DNA from: Escherichia phage vB_EcoM_PTE-Eco09
Sequence record: PQ306574.1
Reading direction: 5' to 3' (one strand)
DNA length: 64,000 nt
Position numbers and translations under genes: made by a program. The notes below the pieces were generated by a model. That model was given only the letters and a program-made list of their open reading frames with translations, was not told where the DNA came from and did no database searches. Positions within the stretch are counted from its first letter, which is position 1; every line of letters begins with the position of its first letter. Shown here piece by piece: positions 31,672 to 56,932 of the stretch.

Positions 31672-32004
31672 ATGTTTAACTATGACAAATATGAATCATG
31701 GAAAGCGACTGAATTGAAAGAGGCAGCGCGGTTAATCACACCGCGTCTTTATCCGGTGTTGTTTAGCGCCGATAAAGTAACAAGGGAAGTAAACGAGGCG
31801 CTATCGGCTTTAGGCTATCTGATCGATAAAGTCGAGAAAACATCGGTATTCACAAATAGCGTAGAATATACCCGGTATCGAGTGTTTTTAGATTCCTTGC
31901 TCGTTGTTATTAAAGCACTAAATGATCATAACTACACCATGAACATGACGAAAATAATCGACGAAGCAAGAATTATGACAGAGAATATTTTCGGTAAATT
32001 TTGA
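31672..32004 (+). CDS. hypothetical protein (paralog of 32113-32442)
   Basis: 110 aa; shares size and the C-terminal motif EN(I/V)(F/Y)GKF with the next ORF. Confidence 0.45.
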   Translation: MFNYDKYESWKATELKEAARLITPRLYPVLFSADKVTREVNEALSALGYLIDKVEKTSVFTNSVEYTRYRVFLDSLLVVIKALNDHNYTMNMTKIIDEARIMTENIFGKF

Positions 32005-32112: not shown

Positions 32113-32442
32113 GTGATTATGATCGAGTTTGAAATTGACAACTTTCACGAAAAAGCAGAAGACCTAACCAAAATTTTGATTAGTCGAGGTGCATATAATA
32201 CGAAAGATATTATAAAAGAAGTTAATGTAGCGATGGACGCGATCCGAAAGGAATTTAAACATATTTCAGCAATTGGAGAAAATGGTCATCTTGAAGATGT
32301 TGAGCTGGTAGCACTGCGACGCTATTACTTCTTTGTTGATTGCATCATTGATCTAGCTAAAAATTATAGTCATTACATGAAAGATATTGTAAAAGATGCA
32401 CGTAAGCTGGCAGAGAATGTTTACGGGAAGTTTCCAGAATGA
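32113..32442 (+). CDS. hypothetical protein (paralog of 31672-32004)
   Basis: 109 aa; see above. Confidence 0.45.
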   Translation: MIMIEFEIDNFHEKAEDLTKILISRGAYNTKDIIKEVNVAMDAIRKEFKHISAIGENGHLEDVELVALRRYYFFVDCIIDLAKNYSHYMKDIVKDARKLAENVYGKFPE

Positions 32443-32687
32443 AATTAGAACAAGCGATTGTTTATTTTGAGATGGGCTATGATATTGCTCGTGTAGAGTG
32501 GGAAGATGGTGATTTTGTCCGATTGATTGATCTTCCCGAAACAGCTATTGCACTGGTCAAAGTAGAAAACGGCATACAACGCAATTACGCGTTTTCTGAC
32601 GAAGACAAACAAGCCGATGACTGGTACGCTACCTGTTTTCATCATACAGCGTCAAAATGTGATTCAGGGGCTTCTATGCGCCAATAA
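32439..32687 (+). CDS. hypothetical protein
   Basis: 82-aa ORF, the last + strand gene before the convergent holin. Confidence 0.4.
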   Translation: MKLEQAIVYFEMGYDIARVEWEDGDFVRLIDLPETAIALVKVENGIQRNYAFSDEDKQADDWYATCFHHTASKCDSGASMRQ

Positions 32688-50699: not shown

Positions 50700-50968
50700 T
50701 GAAAGTCGGTATTATTCAATTATGGACGGCTACCAGTGAAAACTACGCAGTAGCCGTAGATTATTACGGTTTACAATATCTCTATGATGAAGCGAGCGCA
50801 TCATGGCTTCCTGTGCAAGAAAATAGCGATATCTCAAGACCTGCTACTATATTCGACCGTGGCGTTGTCTTTATCGATATTGACGAGACAGTAGCAAAAC
50901 TGCGTAAGAAAGCAATCAACAAGAAAAAGGTGATGTGGGATGAAAGAATATTTGAAACTATTGCGTGA
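50699..50968 (+). CDS. hypothetical protein
   Basis: 89-aa ORF from ATG 50699; overlaps the td start. Confidence 0.4.
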   Translation: MKVGIIQLWTATSENYAVAVDYYGLQYLYDEASASWLPVQENSDISRPATIFDRGVVFIDIDETVAKLRKKAINKKKVMWDERIFETIA

Positions 50969-52160
50969 TGTTCTCGATAATGGCTGGCCTCGTGAAGATC
51001 GAACGGGGGTAGGTACGCTCTCTAAATTCGGCGCAGAGATGCGAATTGACTTAAGCAAGGGTTTCCCATTACTGACCACTAAAAAGATGGCTACAGCCTC
51101 TGTAATTGGCGAATTGCTATGGTTTATGGAGGGATCACTTGACCGCCGTCGCTTACAGGAAATTACACGCGGTAAGTTTGACGAAGAAGCCTTCGACATT
51201 TGGCGCGGCAACTGTCTTGATATGAAAGAAAAGAATCCTTTGCGATTCAATGGTTATAATGTCGGCAATATGTATGGTATGGCGTGGCGACGCAAACCGA
51301 TTCATCCACACGGTGAAATCAAAATTAAGCGCGTTAAGAGCAAATATACACATACATTTAAGCACCCGTGGGTAGAAGACTTTACGCCAACCAATGAAAC
51401 AGAAGACCGTTTATGTGCTATCTGGCGTGGTATGCGTTATGAAGAGTTTGATTATATTCTGGTAGCAGACCACTGGAAGACTCAATCTAATTTTGTTAAT
51501 GATGCATATTGCTTGTGGGGATTCCAGGAATGGGTAGATGATGGTTATTTCGGTTATCTGCTTGATAGTGATTATCTGGGTGGGGATATTATAGCACCGG
51601 ATACCACGATGTTTGTTAGTATGGACGTAGACACATCAAGCACTAAAGACGATGAAGAATATGTCTATCGCCCGAAGATTTGGGAAGACCAGTTACAAAA
51701 CGTGATCGAACAAATTAAAAACAATCCAACGGATCGCCGGATCATTATTGACTCATGGAACGTACAAGGAACACATAATGCTGTATTAGGTGTATGTCAT
51801 CCTTTCGTGCAATTCTACGTCAATGAAGGTAAACTGTCTTGTATGTGGTTTCAGCGAAGCGTAGACAGCTTTTTAGGCTTGCCCTTTAACGTCGCCAGCT
51901 ATGCGCTGTTAACTCACATCATAGCGAAAATGTGTGATCTTGAGGTAGGAGAACTGATTTTCTCTGGTGGAGATACTCACATTTACAAAAACCATTTTGA
52001 TCAAGTCATGGAACAGTTAAGCCGTGTTCCGTTTGATAAACCAACAATTGAGTTGCCGGAATTTAAATCTTTAGATGAGGTATTGACAAAGACTCCGAAA
52101 GACTTTAAAATTCACAACTATCAAAGCCATCCAGCGATCACCGCTCAAATGGCAGTATAA
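50940..52160 (+). CDS. td: thymidylate synthase with a large internal insertion
   Basis: TS motifs DRTGVGT, YGMAWRR, DRRIIIDSWN, LGVCHPFVQFYV, LSCMWFQRSVDSFLGLPFNVASYALLT; 406 aa with extra residues between WRR and DQL. Confidence 0.9.
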   Translation: MKEYLKLLRDVLDNGWPREDRTGVGTLSKFGAEMRIDLSKGFPLLTTKKMATASVIGELLWFMEGSLDRRRLQEITRGKFDEEAFDIWRGNCLDMKEKNPLRFNGYNVGNMYGMAWRRKPIHPHGEIKIKRVKSKYTHTFKHPWVEDFTPTNETEDRLCAIWRGMRYEEFDYILVADHWKTQSNFVNDAYCLWGFQEWVDDGYFGYLLDSDYLGGDIIAPDTTMFVSMDVDTSSTKDDEEYVYRPKIWEDQLQNVIEQIKNNPTDRRIIIDSWNVQGTHNAVLGVCHPFVQFYVNEGKLSCMWFQRSVDSFLGLPFNVASYALLTHIIAKMCDLEVGELIFSGGDTHIYKNHFDQVMEQLSRVPFDKPTIELPEFKSLDEVLTKTPKDFKIHNYQSHPAITAQMAV

Positions 52161-52228: not shown

Positions 52229-54472
52229 ATGATTAAAAATGTTGTTAAGTCTTCCGGTCTGACTGTTCCGTTTGAAAAAGAAAAAGTAATGAAAATTCTG
52301 GAAGCGGCAGCCGAAGGTCATAACGTTGATCCATATGAATTGTTTGATATGGTTGAACCACTTCTGACAGAAGGTATGTCTACCAATGATATCCAGAAAG
52401 TATTGATTAAGGTCGCCGCAGATAACATCACGGTAGAAACACCCGATTATCAATATGTAGCAAGTAACCTTGCAATGTTCGCGCTTCGTAAATCAGTATA
52501 CGGTCAATTCCAACCTATTGATTTTTATAGCCATATTGAGCGTAATATTGCAACCGGAAAATATGATCGCGAAATTCTGCAAAAATATTCCCGTGAAGAA
52601 GTGGAATATCTGGAGAAATTCATCGACCATAAACTTGATTTTAAAATGACCTATGCTGGTGCGATGCAGTTAAAAGAGAAATATCTTGTTCAGGATCGCA
52701 GCACTAAGAAAATCATCGAAACACCGCAATTTGCGTATATGCTGATCGGTATGTGCTTGCATCAAGAAGAGACCGAAAATCGACTTGAACATGTGATTGA
52801 TTTTTATAATGCGGTTGCGAATAAGCAAATCTCTCTGCCTACTCCGATTATGGCAGGTGTGCGTACCCCAACACGCCAATTTAGTTCGTGTGTGGTGATT
52901 GAAAGTGATGACTCATTGCAGGGTATTAATGAAACCGCAAATGCAATCATCAAGTATATTAGCAAGCGTGCTGGTATCGGTATCAACGCTGGCATGATTC
53001 GCGCGGAAGGATCTAAGATCGGGCATGGTGAAGTTCGTCATACTGGAGTTATCCCATTCTGGAAACATTTTCAGACTGCCGTTAAGTCATGCTCACAAGG
53101 CGGTATTCGTGGCGGGGCGGCGACTCTCTATTACCCAATGTGGCATTTAGAGTTTGAAAGTCTGATTGTGTTAAAGAACAATAAGGGGGTGGAAGATAAC
53201 CGCATTCGTCATCTTGATTACGGCGTACAGATTAATAACCTGATGGTAGAGCGATTCCTTAAACGGGATTACATTACTCTGTTTAGTCCAGATGTTGCAG
53301 GTGGCTTGTTGTGGGATCTATACTTCCGAGATGAGGAAGGTTTCCGCCAGCTTTACGAAAAACTGGAAAAAGATCCGAGTGTTCGTAAAACTCGTGTTAA
53401 AGCCGAAGACCTGTTTTTAGCGGTGGCAATTGAACGTTTTAACACTGGTCGAATCTACCCAACGTTCACAGACAACATGAACAATCACGGGGCGTTTATT
53501 CGTAATGTAGCACCGATTAAACAATCTAACCTGTGTTGTGAAATTGCTCTGCCAACAAAACCGATGGGTCGTGATGATTCAGAGATCAGCCTATGCACTT
53601 TGGCAGCATATGTTTTAGGTAATTTCGATATCGAAAATATGGAAGAAGTAGAACGCATTGCTATGGTTATGGTGCGTGCACTTGACAACCTGTTAGATTA
53701 TCAGGATTATCCTGTAGAACAAGCTCTGACAGCCAAAAAACGTCGCTCTCTGGGTGTTGGTGTGACTAACTTTGCATCGTATCTAGCAGATAATTTCTTC
53801 ACATATGAAGACGCTAGCGAGTTTACGCATAAAACGTTTGAACGCTTGCAATATGCTCTGATTAAGGCTAGTGTGCGACTGGCTAAAGAGAAGGGTGCTT
53901 GCGAACTGATGCACGAAACACGCTATGGTCGCGGTGAACTTCCTATCGACTGGTACAAAAAGACAGTAGATGAACTGGTTGATCCGGTGTATGAGATGGA
54001 TTGGGAAGAACTGCGCGAAGACCTGAAAAAATATGGCATTCGTAACAGTACGCTTTCGGCGCTGATGCCCTGTGAGTCATCTTCTCAGGTGTCTAACAGC
54101 ACAAACGGTATTGAACCGCCTCGCGGGATTGTATCGGTTAAAGGATCGAAAGAAGGGCAATTTAATCAGGTTATTCCGAACGTAGAGAATAATGCTGATG
54201 TTATTGACCTGCTTTGGACACTGATCAAGAAAGGTAACAAGCCCTATCTGACACTGGCAGCGATCATGCAGAAGTTTGTAGATCAGGCGATTAGTTCCAA
54301 TACATCCTATGATCCAAGCACTTATAAGACTGGTAAAGTCGATATTGCTGATGTGTTAGATGATATGTTGTTCGCTCAACATTACGGTCTGAAAACCCTG
54401 TATTATGCGAACGTTCGCGACGGTGCAGATGGTACGGAAGACGCTAGCGAGTGCTCATCTTGCAAGCTGTAA
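52229..54472 (+). CDS. nrdA: ribonucleotide reductase large subunit NrdA
   Basis: 747 aa; N-terminal ATP-cone, class I RNR core; C-terminal CSSCKL-type tail. Confidence 0.9.
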   Translation: MIKNVVKSSGLTVPFEKEKVMKILEAAAEGHNVDPYELFDMVEPLLTEGMSTNDIQKVLIKVAADNITVETPDYQYVASNLAMFALRKSVYGQFQPIDFYSHIERNIATGKYDREILQKYSREEVEYLEKFIDHKLDFKMTYAGAMQLKEKYLVQDRSTKKIIETPQFAYMLIGMCLHQEETENRLEHVIDFYNAVANKQISLPTPIMAGVRTPTRQFSSCVVIESDDSLQGINETANAIIKYISKRAGIGINAGMIRAEGSKIGHGEVRHTGVIPFWKHFQTAVKSCSQGGIRGGAATLYYPMWHLEFESLIVLKNNKGVEDNRIRHLDYGVQINNLMVERFLKRDYITLFSPDVAGGLLWDLYFRDEEGFRQLYEKLEKDPSVRKTRVKAEDLFLAVAIERFNTGRIYPTFTDNMNNHGAFIRNVAPIKQSNLCCEIALPTKPMGRDDSEISLCTLAAYVLGNFDIENMEEVERIAMVMVRALDNLLDYQDYPVEQALTAKKRRSLGVGVTNFASYLADNFFTYEDASEFTHKTFERLQYALIKASVRLAKEKGACELMHETRYGRGELPIDWYKKTVDELVDPVYEMDWEELREDLKKYGIRNSTLSALMPCESSSQVSNSTNGIEPPRGIVSVKGSKEGQFNQVIPNVENNADVIDLLWTLIKKGNKPYLTLAAIMQKFVDQAISSNTSYDPSTYKTGKVDIADVLDDMLFAQHYGLKTLYYANVRDGADGTEDASECSSCKL

Positions 54473-54480
54473 AATAAGTG

Positions 54481-54509
54481 TTGACGCGGGGAGAAATCCC
54501 CGCTATAAT
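54481..54509 (+). promoter_or_regulatory. sigma70-like early promoter with hairpin in the spacer
   Basis: TTGACG-17 nt-TATAAT; GCGGGGA-GAAA-TCCCCGC lies between -35 and -10. Confidence 0.5.
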
Positions 54510-54540: not shown

Positions 54541-54708
54541 ATGACCAAATTAAAATGTGTTGCTGTAGATTTTGAGCTAGCTGATAGCTTTGTTGTTGGT
54601 GATGAATATGATGCTCGACATGATGGGACTTGCTACTACGTCGAGGATGAATACGGTGTAGAATGGGCGATTCTTCCTGATGATAAATGTTTTGAGGTTG
54701 TCGGATAA
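54541..54708 (+). CDS. hypothetical small protein
   Basis: 55-aa ORF. Confidence 0.35.
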   Translation: MTKLKCVAVDFELADSFVVGDEYDARHDGTCYYVEDEYGVEWAILPDDKCFEVVG

Positions 54709-54881
54709 TGGCTACTGTATGGTTATTGATTGCAATAAGCAATTCAATGTATAATTACGGAAATATGTCAAGCATTGAGTTTGCAACAAAGCAGGATTGC
54801 GTTAAAGCTCGCGAGATTATCCGCGAAGACAATAAACGCTTTATGAATCTATATTGCGTTGAAAAACAAAAGGTGAACTAA
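54708..54881 (+). CDS. small hydrophobic-N-terminus protein (tandem paralog 1)
   Basis: 57 aa MATVWLLIAISNSMYNYGNMSSIEF...; TAATG overlap. Confidence 0.4.
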   Translation: MATVWLLIAISNSMYNYGNMSSIEFATKQDCVKAREIIREDNKRFMNLYCVEKQKVN

Positions 54882-55048
54882 TGGCTACATTATGGTTATT
54901 GCTTTCCGTTAGCGTAGGCGTATATAATAAAGGAACTGTTACCAGCGTAGAGTTTTCATCATATCAAAATTGTTTTGAAGCTGTGCAGGAATTGCAGCAG
55001 GATAGCGAAATAAACAGAAATACTAAGTTCTTTTGTGTTAAAAAGTGA
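54881..55048 (+). CDS. small hydrophobic-N-terminus protein (tandem paralog 2)
   Basis: 55 aa MATLWLLLSVSVGVYNKGTVTSVEF...; similar to the preceding ORF. Confidence 0.4.
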   Translation: MATLWLLLSVSVGVYNKGTVTSVEFSSYQNCFEAVQELQQDSEINRNTKFFCVKK

Positions 55049-55057
55049 TAGTGAGGT

Positions 55058-55117
55058 GAATTAATCCTTCTTCTGGATACCTGATAAATAATGGTATACA
55101 GAAAAGAGGATTAATTC
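55058..55117 (+). promoter_or_regulatory. RBS-sequestering inverted repeat with late-promoter-like element upstream of the mobE-like gene
   Basis: Perfect 11-bp inverted repeat GAATTAATCCT (55058-55068) / AGGATTAATTC (55107-55117); the 3' arm covers the RBS; loop contains GATAAATAAT. Confidence 0.55.
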
Positions 55118-55765
55118 ATGAACTTACAAAAACTACATGACGCAATCATAGAAAAAGCAAAGACGAGAGGAACCGTTGAAGGGTATAAGGAAACACATCA
55201 TATTTTACCGCGATCTATGGGTGGCGGTGATGAAGTTGATAACCTGATTGAGTTGACAGCAAAAGAACATTTCGTGATTCATCATCTGCTAGCAAAAATT
55301 CATGGTGGACCTATGGCACAAGCATTTGGTATGATGTGTTTAGCAAAAAATGCGAAGACCAATAAAAGAGATTATATTGTTTCGTCTAGGGTATATGAAC
55401 AAGCTAGGGTACTTATCTCTGAACAAAGAAAGGGCAAACCTATGAAAGAAGAAACGCGAAGAAAGATTAGCGAATCTTCGAAAGGTGTGTTGAAATCAGA
55501 AGAGACAAAAGCTAAAATGCGTAAGCCAAAAACAAAGGAGCACGCGTTAAACATTTCAAAAGCTAGAATGGGCAGTAAAAATCCTATGTTTGGGAAACCA
55601 TCGCCAACTAAAGGAATACCACATAGTGAGGAAATGAGAAAGCTGATTGCACAAAGGACAAAGGAAGCAACAATGGCAGATCCTTGTCCGCATTGCGGTA
55701 AAATTACCAATAAAGGCAATTCTCTACGATGGCACTTTGATAACTGTAAAATGAGGAATATGTGA
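55118..55765 (+). CDS. mobE: HNH homing endonuclease with NUMOD3-like repeats (MobE-like)
   Basis: HNH motif HHILPRSMGGGDEVDNLIELTAKEHFVIHH; repeated ...R.KIS.S.KG... NUMOD3-like units; located between nrdA and nrdB like T4 mobE. Confidence 0.75.
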   Translation: MNLQKLHDAIIEKAKTRGTVEGYKETHHILPRSMGGGDEVDNLIELTAKEHFVIHHLLAKIHGGPMAQAFGMMCLAKNAKTNKRDYIVSSRVYEQARVLISEQRKGKPMKEETRRKISESSKGVLKSEETKAKMRKPKTKEHALNISKARMGSKNPMFGKPSPTKGIPHSEEMRKLIAQRTKEATMADPCPHCGKITNKGNSLRWHFDNCKMRNM

Positions 55766-56932
55766 ATGGGAAATACGGTATTTAATCGTGAACACGTTGA
55801 TATTATGAATGAACCGATGTTTCTGGGCAGCGGTTTAGGTATCGCTCGTTATGACATTCAGCGTCATCAAGTATTTGAAGAATTAATTGAAAAATCTCTG
55901 TCATTTTTTTGGCGCCCCGAAGAAATTTCACTTGCAACCGACCGCATTCAATATCTTAATATGGGTGACGTTGAAAAGCGTTTCTTTACTGAAAACTTGA
56001 AGTATCAGACATTACTTGATTCTATTCAAGGTCGCGCACCGTCCGCAGCATTTGGTCCAATTGTATCTGATCCAACTCTCGATACATGGTTGCAAACATG
56101 GACATTCAGCGAAACGATTCATAGCCGAAGCTATACACACATTATGCGTAACTGTTTCATTGATCCGGCTAGTGAGTTCGACCAGATCATCGATAACCCT
56201 GCTATCATGAAGCGAGCGGAATCTATCGGGAAATATTATGATGATGTTCTTTATTGGATTCGTAAGTATGAGAATGCAAAAGAAGATCTCCGCTATTGGG
56301 AAGAACGAGACGACCAGACAGCATTAGATGATGCAAGAAGATTTTTTGAAGATACAAAACGAGATCTGATGGCTTCGATTTATCTGTGTGCACACTGCGT
56401 AAATGCACTGGAAGCAATCCGTTTTTATGTGTCCTTTGCATGTACTTTCAGCTTTGCCGAACGTGGTTTACTGGAAGGTAACGCGAAGATCATGAAATTT
56501 ATTGCGCGTGATGAACAACTTCACTTAAAAGGAACACAATACATTATTCGTCAATGGCAAACGGGGGTTGATGGTGATGAGTGGAAACAGATTGCGGAAG
56601 AACTTGAAGGCGAAGCAACGAAAATCTTTCTGGATGTTGTCGAGCAAGAAAAAGAATGGGTAGACCACCTATTCGCAATGGGGGCAATTCCTAACCTGTC
56701 ACCGGAAATTCTGAAAACCTATGTAGAATACCTGGCAGATTCCCGTATGCGTGCTGCCGGACTGAAAAGCCCGTTTAGTGTTCGTCGTCATCCGTTACCG
56801 TGGATGCGTAAATGGTTGAACTCTGACGAAGTACAGAATGCAGCGCAGGAAGTAGAGATTATGTATCTGGTATCTCAGGTTAATACCGATTTAACAGACG
56901 ACGACTACAACCGATTCGGGAAATATCTATGA
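55766..56932 (+). CDS. nrdB: ribonucleotide reductase small subunit NrdB (uninterrupted)
   Basis: 388 aa; di-iron ligand regions (SETIHSRSYTHI, EAIRFYVSF, DEQLHLKG); continuous ORF. Confidence 0.85.
   Translation: MGNTVFNREHVDIMNEPMFLGSGLGIARYDIQRHQVFEELIEKSLSFFWRPEEISLATDRIQYLNMGDVEKRFFTENLKYQTLLDSIQGRAPSAAFGPIVSDPTLDTWLQTWTFSETIHSRSYTHIMRNCFIDPASEFDQIIDNPAIMKRAESIGKYYDDVLYWIRKYENAKEDLRYWEERDDQTALDDARRFFEDTKRDLMASIYLCAHCVNALEAIRFYVSFACTFSFAERGLLEGNAKIMKFIARDEQLHLKGTQYIIRQWQTGVDGDEWKQIAEELEGEATKIFLDVVEQEKEWVDHLFAMGAIPNLSPEILKTYVEYLADSRMRAAGLKSPFSVRRHPLPWMRKWLNSDEVQNAAQEVEIMYLVSQVNTDLTDDDYNRFGKYL

Follow-up and report, generated by a model that had tools for sequence, protein, structure and literature searches.

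Genes and features at the locus

The genes described here lie in a 64-kb stretch of the genome of Escherichia phage vB_EcoM_PTE-Eco09 (record PQ306574.1), which we analysed as a whole and call the window. The window comes from an RB49-like phage of the Straboviridae, genus Krischvirus, and the region of interest matches 58 phage records at 90-99.8% identity, some of these records being duplicates of one phage. The local gene order is td (50940-52160), nrdA (52229-54472, + strand), three small ORFs, a homing endonuclease gene, nrdB (55766-56932, + strand) and a phosphatase-like gene. All three small ORFs are on the + strand. The first, which we call ORF0 (54541-54708), encodes a 55-aa homolog of RB49p233 that belongs to phrog_16302. 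The two that follow encode a 57-aa homolog of RB49p232 (copy 1, 54708-54881) and a 55-aa homolog of RB49p231 (copy 2, 54881-55048), and both belong to phrog_5579. A preliminary description of this DNA had singled out these two adjacent ORFs, and it gave their coordinates, lengths and N-termini correctly. It had also reported that the ORFs are linked by TAATG overlaps; both overlaps are indeed found in the sequence, at 54706-54710 (ORF0/copy 1) and at 54879-54883 (copy 1/copy 2). A plausible Shine-Dalgarno (SD) sequence precedes each copy: for copy 1 it is GAGG, at a distance of 10 nt, and for copy 2 AGGTG, at 5 nt. The three ORFs would appear to be translationally coupled. ORF0 itself shows no similarity to either paralog (shuffle z = 0.04 and 1.1).

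The pair had been placed between nrdA and mobE, and this is where it lies. Upstream is nrdA, and downstream, at 55118-55765 on the + strand, is a MobE-type HNH/NUMOD3 homing endonuclease gene (phrog_655 match at 1.8e-55, together with a NUMOD3 match), whose product shares 49% identity with T4 MobE and 56% with T4 NrdB.1. The endonuclease gene is variably present among relatives: it occurs in SSG23, phiS, JSE and AV108, and from annotation only in SFHK24, and it was not seen in RB49 or the other relatives inspected. The nick that MobE makes in T4 is at the 5' end of nrdB, and homing there is accompanied by co-conversion over as much as ~2 kb (PMC2790892). If this behaviour holds here, the pair would sit inside the homing tract of the adjacent endonuclease, and its mosaicism may be increased.

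The arrangement resembles that of T4, whose td-nrdA-nrdB cluster also has a MobE endonuclease gene at the corresponding place, between nrdA and nrdB. T4 NrdB.1 corresponds to the C-terminal part of the endonuclease of the window, and T4 nrdA.1 and nrdA.2 lie upstream of nrdA, between td and nrdA; a profile comparison ruled out all three products (NrdB.1, NrdA.1 and NrdA.2) as homologs of the pair. In fact, the family profile matches no ORF between positions 135000 and 146000 of the T4 record (pseT.1 to frd.1), the best E being 0.16, and no Tequatrovirus record was listed by tblastn searches with copy 1 or with a homolog from a Koutsourovirus.

Copies 1 and 2 are 98-100% identical to annotated proteins of RB49-like phages, the phi1 equivalents being ORF232 and ORF231. 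In every record inspected both genes are annotated as hypothetical protein, and none of these records notes the paralogy, the fold or a function of RB49p232 and RB49p231. What is already known of the genes is thus their presence in the databases as hypothetical proteins and in a PHROG of unknown function, and they fit a pattern of ORFans described for RB49 and phi1, to which we now turn.

An early-type promoter and stem-loop in front of the string

Directly after the nrdA stop codon lies a sigma-70-like promoter of early type (54481-54509, + strand; TTGACG-17-TATAAT), which scores 11/12 in a promoter scan. Its spacer holds a stem-loop, GCGGGGA-GAAA-TCCCCGC (54486-54503), with an RNA fold z-score of -3.86. 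The promoter/stem-loop is followed by a GAGGA SD sequence and then by the ATG of a small ORF, so that the element has all the features that define a PeSL (promoter-early stem-loop). Across the window there are 13 TTGAC-N16-19-TATAAT sites where 0.35 would be expected, and every one of them is on the + (coding) strand. RB49, FL20 and a metagenomic contig from a sister lineage (L026, described below) all carry the promoter/stem-loop element behind nrdA in identical form; it is annotated as a promoter in the GEC-3S record and as a terminator in the Makalu_003 record.

PeSLs were defined in RB49 and phi1 by Arbiol et al. 2010 (PMC2839356), who showed for representative elements a strong early promoter joined to a terminator/attenuator, beside non-essential ORFans in plastic regions. 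The main text of that paper does not mention ORF231-233, nrdA or nrdB (PMC2839356). The locus shares with the RB49/phi1 cassettes the strong early-type promoter, whose -35/-10 spacer holds a GGGG...CCCC stem-loop, the SD sequence behind it, and small ORFans whose presence varies among close relatives. It differs from PeSL-bounded cassettes in having a single PeSL, upstream of the cassette: the promoter scan found no second promoter/stem-loop between copy 2 and the endonuclease gene or nrdB. The manner of loss also differs, since genes are lost here through the paralog 5' ends or through a 4-bp microhomology and not by PeSL-PeSL excision. We infer from the promoter sequence that the three ORFs would be expressed early.

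The two genes are old tandem duplicates

The preliminary description had proposed that the two ORFs share a motif, and similarity in a formal alignment was the obvious check. The paralogs align far above chance. BLASTP gives 38% identity and 75% positives (E=6e-16), and the Smith-Waterman score is 118, against 21.9 +/- 4.4 in 2000 shuffles, none of which reached 118 (z=21.8). Even when the first 8 residues, which hold the shared MAT.WLL start, are left out, z is still 13.5. Moreover, both copies match the phrog_5579 profile over its full length (1-52 of 52), with E=6.8e-24 and 5.7e-24. The residues of the proposed motif are right, but two of its spacings are not: EF is separated from the first Cys by 5 residues and not 4, and A34 from the second Cys by 18-20 residues and not 7.

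A local duplication had been suggested as the origin of the pair, and the wider comparison bears this out. The copies are adjacent members of one family and the only two phrog_5579 members in the window, and every other phage locus examined carries one family member. The most telling relative is the sister-lineage contig L026 (~73% nucleotide identity), which has a single member, P0018, at exactly this site and behind the same promoter/stem-loop; its gene order is frd, td, nrdA split by an endonuclease gene, the same PeSL, P0018 and nrdB. P0018 is 47% identical to copy 1 and 51% identical to copy 2, the copies being 38% identical to each other. Its position and its roughly equal distance from both copies fit a duplication at this site in the Krischvirus lineage, after which both copies diverged. 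An alternative history, in which the sister lineage once had a pair that collapsed long ago, could leave the same picture. In a neighbour-joining tree each copy is nearer to metagenomic homologs than to the other copy, a result obtained with 55-aa sequences and carrying no bootstrap support. We did not accept an independent acquisition of the two genes from this tree, because of the short sequences, the missing bootstrap support and the equidistant, syntenic single-copy relative. Thus, sequence comparison identifies the two ORFs as old tandem duplicates within a widespread phage ORFan family, phrog_5579, and they are probably expressed early.

The window holds another pair of paralogs, which had been noted at the same time (31672-32004 and 32113-32442) and which also stands: the two proteins, both of phrog_9457, are 26% identical (BLASTP E=8e-8). 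Both genes are on the + strand. The first encodes 110 aa; the second encodes 109 aa when read from a GTG, and its true start is probably the ATG at 32119, behind GAGGTG.

Natural loss and fusion of the genes

The records themselves document what recombination does to the pair. When the three ORFs (ORF0, copy 1 and copy 2) were used as a single query, 52 of the 58 Krischvirus records covered it fully, one copy was present in 2, and the remaining 4 matched ORF0 only. FL20 and G37-3 carry a single fused gene, composed of the start of copy 1 and the body of copy 2. The crossover lies within the shared 5' segment, and exactly one unit is gone (174 bp in FL20). In fact, the first 24 nt of the copies are identical at 21/24 positions, as against 75/135 in the rest. 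JSE and AV108 have lost both genes by a precise deletion between two GATA tetranucleotides (microhomology); both phages carry the MobE-type endonuclease gene and keep nrdA and nrdB. FL15 likewise matches ORF0 only. Since phages with one copy and with no copy exist in nature, the pair appears dispensable for propagation on the isolation hosts. A 44-aa chimera that is out of register (P0017) occurs in a metagenome. A scan of IMG/VR for related loci returned two RB49-like loci only.

Losses, fusions and an out-of-register chimera are also what would be expected if the ORFs were non-functional filler, spurious or decaying, in a recombination-prone intergenic region by a homing-endonuclease insertion site, and the region is indeed an insertion hot spot. 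The coding sequences speak strongly against this. We compared 15 sequences, the window and 14 related loci, with 11-15 distinct alleles per gene, and both ORFs are intact in all of them. By the Nei-Gojobori method, copy 1 has a dN/dS of 0.054, copy 2 one of 0.17 and ORF0 one of 0.19, the low values of 0.05-0.17 for the two copies being obtained with many synonymous differences. Together with the 52 fully covered records, the SD sequences and coupled starts, the confident predicted folds and the homologs with conserved core residues in unrelated phage groups (both described below), these values make such an explanation very improbable. In short, the substitution pattern identifies both copies as real genes under purifying selection. 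The selection is spread along the proteins: dN/dS is at most 0.21 in any segment of either copy. The helix region of copy 2, where positive selection was looked for, gave a negative result (omega 0.21), and segment-wise dN/dS showed no sign of the diversifying selection that an arms-race binder might show.

A family of small phage proteins with two conserved cysteines

To what family do these proteins belong? An exhaustive HMM profile search of 1.84 billion representative proteins (cut-off E<=1e-3) gave 69 matches, of which 2 are spurious long repeat proteins; the others are mostly 50-65 aa long, with a range of 42-113. A second, word-indexed search with a wider alignment brought in further members, none of them named or carrying a Pfam domain. 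The phrog_5579 profile is matched by 60 of 70 independently found relatives, and the neighbouring PHROG, phrog_3766, is also of unknown function. Pfam and NCBIfam scans of both proteins and the 70 relatives gave no family, and a profile search of the PDB gave chance matches only (E>0.4), hence no sequence relative there. Our reading of the literature on phrog_5579, on RB49 nrdA/nrdB, on the Krischvirus homing endonuclease and on RB49 anti-defense found nothing on these genes.

The members are divergent (mean column identity 19%) and nevertheless keep a distinct core. C31 is invariant in the 70-sequence alignment, where conservation of C50, L7, G18 and F25 is 90% or more; in a 52-sequence alignment the residues at this level are W5, L6, L7, I8 and C50. 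Exactly two cysteines are present in 66 of the 70 members. Both copies show the family core, namely a W-L-L strand, a G-x-Y-N-x-G turn and E-F, together with a Cys at the start of the helix and a Cys-Val in the last strand.

The phages that carry these genes are varied. The member in an Enterobacter Koutsourovirus (Autographiviridae) is unannotated and lies between the genes for an AAA-family ATPase and the DNA polymerase. Others are found in a 366-kb Erwinia jumbo phage, in a temperate element with integrase, Lar and methylase, in a NinB-containing region and in other uncultured phages. In one unrelated phage contig the family gene ends 2 nt upstream of a thioredoxin gene (WCSPC motif), near ThyX and DNA ligase. 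The member is always found within a run of small overlapping ORFs, and elsewhere family genes adjoin small early, replication or accessory genes of unrelated phages. Across nine non-Krischvirus contexts there is no conserved neighbour: an all-against-all BLAST of the flanking ORFs returned no matches.

The proteins are predicted to be soluble

Both proteins had been described as small and membrane-associated, owing to their hydrophobic N-termini. This part of the preliminary description is not borne out: the hydrophobic stretch is too short, and it is modelled as a strand of a sheet. In copy 1 the hydrophobic run extends over about residues 4-10, in copy 2 over about 4-14 (~10-13 residues), whereas a segment that crosses the bilayer needs about 18-20. 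Averaged over 19 residues, Kyte-Doolittle hydropathy peaks at 0.61 for copy 1 and 1.07 for copy 2, short of the customary threshold of 1.6. Few parts of the family are as conserved in sequence as this segment, whose W5, L6 and L7 are nearly invariant.

AlphaFold2, run with the 52-sequence alignment, models both copies with confidence. For copy 1 (pLDDT 87.4, pTM 0.68) the model has strands at 5-11, 20-25 and 46-52 and a helix at 28-41; for copy 2 (pLDDT 93.2, pTM 0.72) it has strands at 5-13, 16-25 and 48-54 and helices at 28-38 and 42-47. In residues 1-20 the pLDDT block means are 84-93. The copy-1 model also agrees with a BFVD model made for an ortholog of copy 2 (TM 0.83). In these models the N-terminus is the first strand of a beta hairpin, within a three-stranded sheet packed against one helix (beta-beta-alpha-beta). 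Because the N-terminal segment is short, uncharged, conserved and modelled as a strand, it points to a soluble domain and not to an anchor, and both proteins are predicted to be small soluble domains.

One may still ask whether this segment acts as a membrane anchor or as a short signal peptide, in which case export would leave a mature protein of ~42 residues with a periplasmic disulfide. The N-terminus is hydrophobic and uncharged, small residues follow the run in a -3/-1-like pattern, which reads S-x-S in copy 1 and S-x-G both in copy 2 and in the consensus of the family, and two cysteines, both invariant or nearly so, would suit an oxidising compartment. Against these features stand a stretch of only ~10 residues and the low hydropathy maxima; only 2 of the 70 members reach a Kyte-Doolittle value of 1.6, and these two belong to the weaker matches (E 2.8e-5 and 9.6e-5). 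Neither copy has K or R in its first six residues, where an n-region would be expected, and only 14% of the family do; a near-invariant W-L-L is unlike signal or transmembrane segments; and AlphaFold2 places the segment in a sheet with high confidence in both copies. We therefore consider membrane association or export unlikely, and prefer the soluble domain.

Comparison with known structures

Foldseek searches of the PDB with both models returned nothing significant, in that no match had E<0.6; the best was a PII-like protein, at E 0.67. Two kinds of protein recur in the lists for both models, T4/RB69 Dmd and phi29-family p56, with TMq 0.40-0.57 and E 2.6-5.5, which is not significant. The Dmd structures are 5hy3_B (TMq 0.57, E 2.6) and 5i8j_B (TMq 0.40, E 3.4), and those of p56, the phi29/PZA UDG inhibitor, are 4l5n_C, 2le2 and 3zoq_C. 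Like Dmd, which is an antitoxin against RnlA/LsoA, and like p56, the proteins studied here have 50-62 aa folded into one small alpha/beta domain and are products of probably early, apparently dispensable genes. They differ in having no sequence similarity to either (a PDB profile search for similarity to Dmd gave no match), so that the resemblance is one of size and topology only. To our knowledge, neither Dmd nor p56 has the conserved cysteine pair or the W-L-L strand. In BFVD, many uncharacterised phage proteins of 50-70 aa share the fold, with TM 0.7-0.8; one BFVD match labelled DUF1482 was set aside for want of sequence support.

A proposed role, and the place of the cysteines

To explain these results as a whole, we propose that the two genes encode duplicated, early, soluble accessory factors that bind a protein, a reading to which we give a probability of about 0.5. 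Early expression from the PeSL promoter would precede an accessory, non-essential role, in which the proteins, like small phage inhibitors or antitoxins, would bind a partner protein stoichiometrically; this partner would most likely come from the host. The proteins would probably act as homo- or heterodimers formed via strand 1 of the sheet, because this strand (W-L-L-I-A-I) is hydrophobic on both faces and the sheet has a single helix to cover one of them. Both dimerisation and the binding of a partner are suggested here only by the secondary-structure pattern of the models. The two cysteines, invariant or nearly so, probably form a structural or metal-binding site. By analogy with such small inhibitors, a non-essential, protein-binding accessory factor is the most likely function.

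The cysteines and the position of the genes also bring to mind another function: the proteins could assist the phage RNR or thioredoxin in nucleotide metabolism, as accessory factors with a redox function or a bound metal, for example as a dimer whose four cysteines carry a metal or Fe-S centre. In E. coli, nrdAB is followed by yfaE, a small ferredoxin gene. The family gene lies between nrdA and nrdB both in Krischvirus and in the ~73% identical sister lineage, it has thioredoxin, ThyX and DNA ligase near it in the unrelated contig mentioned above, and C31 is invariant and C50 nearly so at a mean column identity of only 19%. However, most members are found away from nrd or thioredoxin genes, and JSE and AV108 retain nrdA and nrdB in the absence of both copies. 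Nor do the proteins look the part: they have no CxxC motif, the monomer holding two cysteines 19-21 residues apart, and neither Pfam, NCBIfam nor Foldseek gives a sequence or fold match to redoxins or ferredoxins. On balance we find a redox role doubtful, about as improbable as export. A more explicit form of it is a shade less probable again: the family might be a new class of cysteine-pair mini-proteins whose dimers, which in Krischvirus would be heterodimers of the two paralogs, enclose a metal or redox centre and tune the dNTP supply via RNR or thioredoxin. If true, this would account for the thioredoxin neighbour in one phage as well as for the site between nrdA and nrdB that two T4-like lineages share. 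The accessory factor that binds a host protein remains our preferred reading.

What the pair may mean

About 50 sequenced RB49-like phages, some of which were isolated with phage therapy in mind, carry these two hypothetical genes, for which a fuller description can now be given: they form one duplicated family, their fold is predicted with confidence, one cysteine is invariant, their regulation is probably of early type, and natural isolates indicate that phages can do without them. In practice this is a modest gain, and the finding is well-behaved and fairly ordinary. The locus does show cleanly how recombination between conserved 5' ends collapses a tandem pair of paralogs, here beside a hot spot for homing endonucleases, and the natural variants FL20, G37-3, JSE and AV108 are ready-made comparison strains. 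Beyond Krischvirus, the family is found in T4-like, T7-like, jumbo and temperate phages and is without a solved or characterised relative. We envision it as a reasonable and cheap candidate for screens of small proteins that may serve host takeover or anti-defence.

Homing endonuclease genes around nrdA and nrdB

Around nrdA and nrdB lies a hot spot where homing endonuclease genes of different kinds have inserted; the sites compared are 55049-55117 in the window and its equivalents in the comparison loci L006 (1679-2218), L014 and L015, and in the sister-lineage metagenomic contig L026 (3260-3973). A MobE-type endonuclease gene is present in the window and in SSG23, phiS, JSE and AV108. In G37-3 the inserted ORF, 179 aa long, is unrelated to the MobE type and, judged by eye only, looks like an HNH/AP2-type endonuclease. 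In the sister lineage, nrdA itself is split by an endonuclease gene, and KMB43 appears to carry a methyltransferase insertion.

We aligned the MobE-type endonuclease of the window (55118-55765, 215 aa) to two products of phage T4 (NC_000866, 4717-5417). Its residues 1-120 share 49% identity with T4 MobE (141 aa), and residues 134-214, the NUMOD3/Cys-rich part, share 56% identity with T4 NrdB.1 (83 aa), the product of a separate ORF labelled 'hypothetical'. Because the one endonuclease aligns to both, T4 mobE and nrdB.1 look like a single gene split in two ORFs; the main paper on T4 mobE does not mention nrdB.1.

Upstream ORF and early promoters

In phage FL20 (L004, 1836-2001), paralog 1 is lost and the upstream RB49p233-type ORF, the first small ORF before the pair, carries a 2-bp deletion that breaks it into two short annotated ORFs. 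This deletion is a genuine frameshift mutation or else an artefact of sequencing.

At 54481-54509 of the window lies an early promoter of the PeSL (promoter-early stem-loop) type, whose spacer holds a GGGG...CCCC hairpin. Promoter and hairpin are identical, base for base, between Krischvirus and the sister-lineage contig (L026, 4946-4972), which elsewhere share only about 73% identity. Across the whole window the exact pattern TTGAC-N16-19-TATAAT occurs at 13 sites, all on the + strand, as against 0.35 expected by chance; the motif count therefore indicates that strong early promoters would be densely set in this part of the genome.

A family member beside thioredoxin

In an uncultured 37-kb phage contig (L030, 4001-4466), a thioredoxin gene with a WCSPC motif starts 2 nt after a phrog_5579 family member, and ThyX and DNA ligase are encoded nearby. 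Away from the nrd locus, a redox link is hinted at by this thioredoxin neighbour alone.

The second paralog pair

In the second pair (phrog_9457), mechanical ORF calling starts paralog B at the GTG at 32113 (start region 32113-32125), yet the more likely start would be the ATG at 32119, which is preceded by GAGGTG and gives 107 aa. The end of the pair is overlapped by an 82-aa ORF (32439-32687) that matches the Pfam Tad2-like domain (Thoeris anti-defence 2-like, PF11195) at 27.9 bits (E = 3.4e-6), exceeding the cutoff of 25 bits. This match thus suggests that an anti-defence gene cluster may lie at the second paralog pair.
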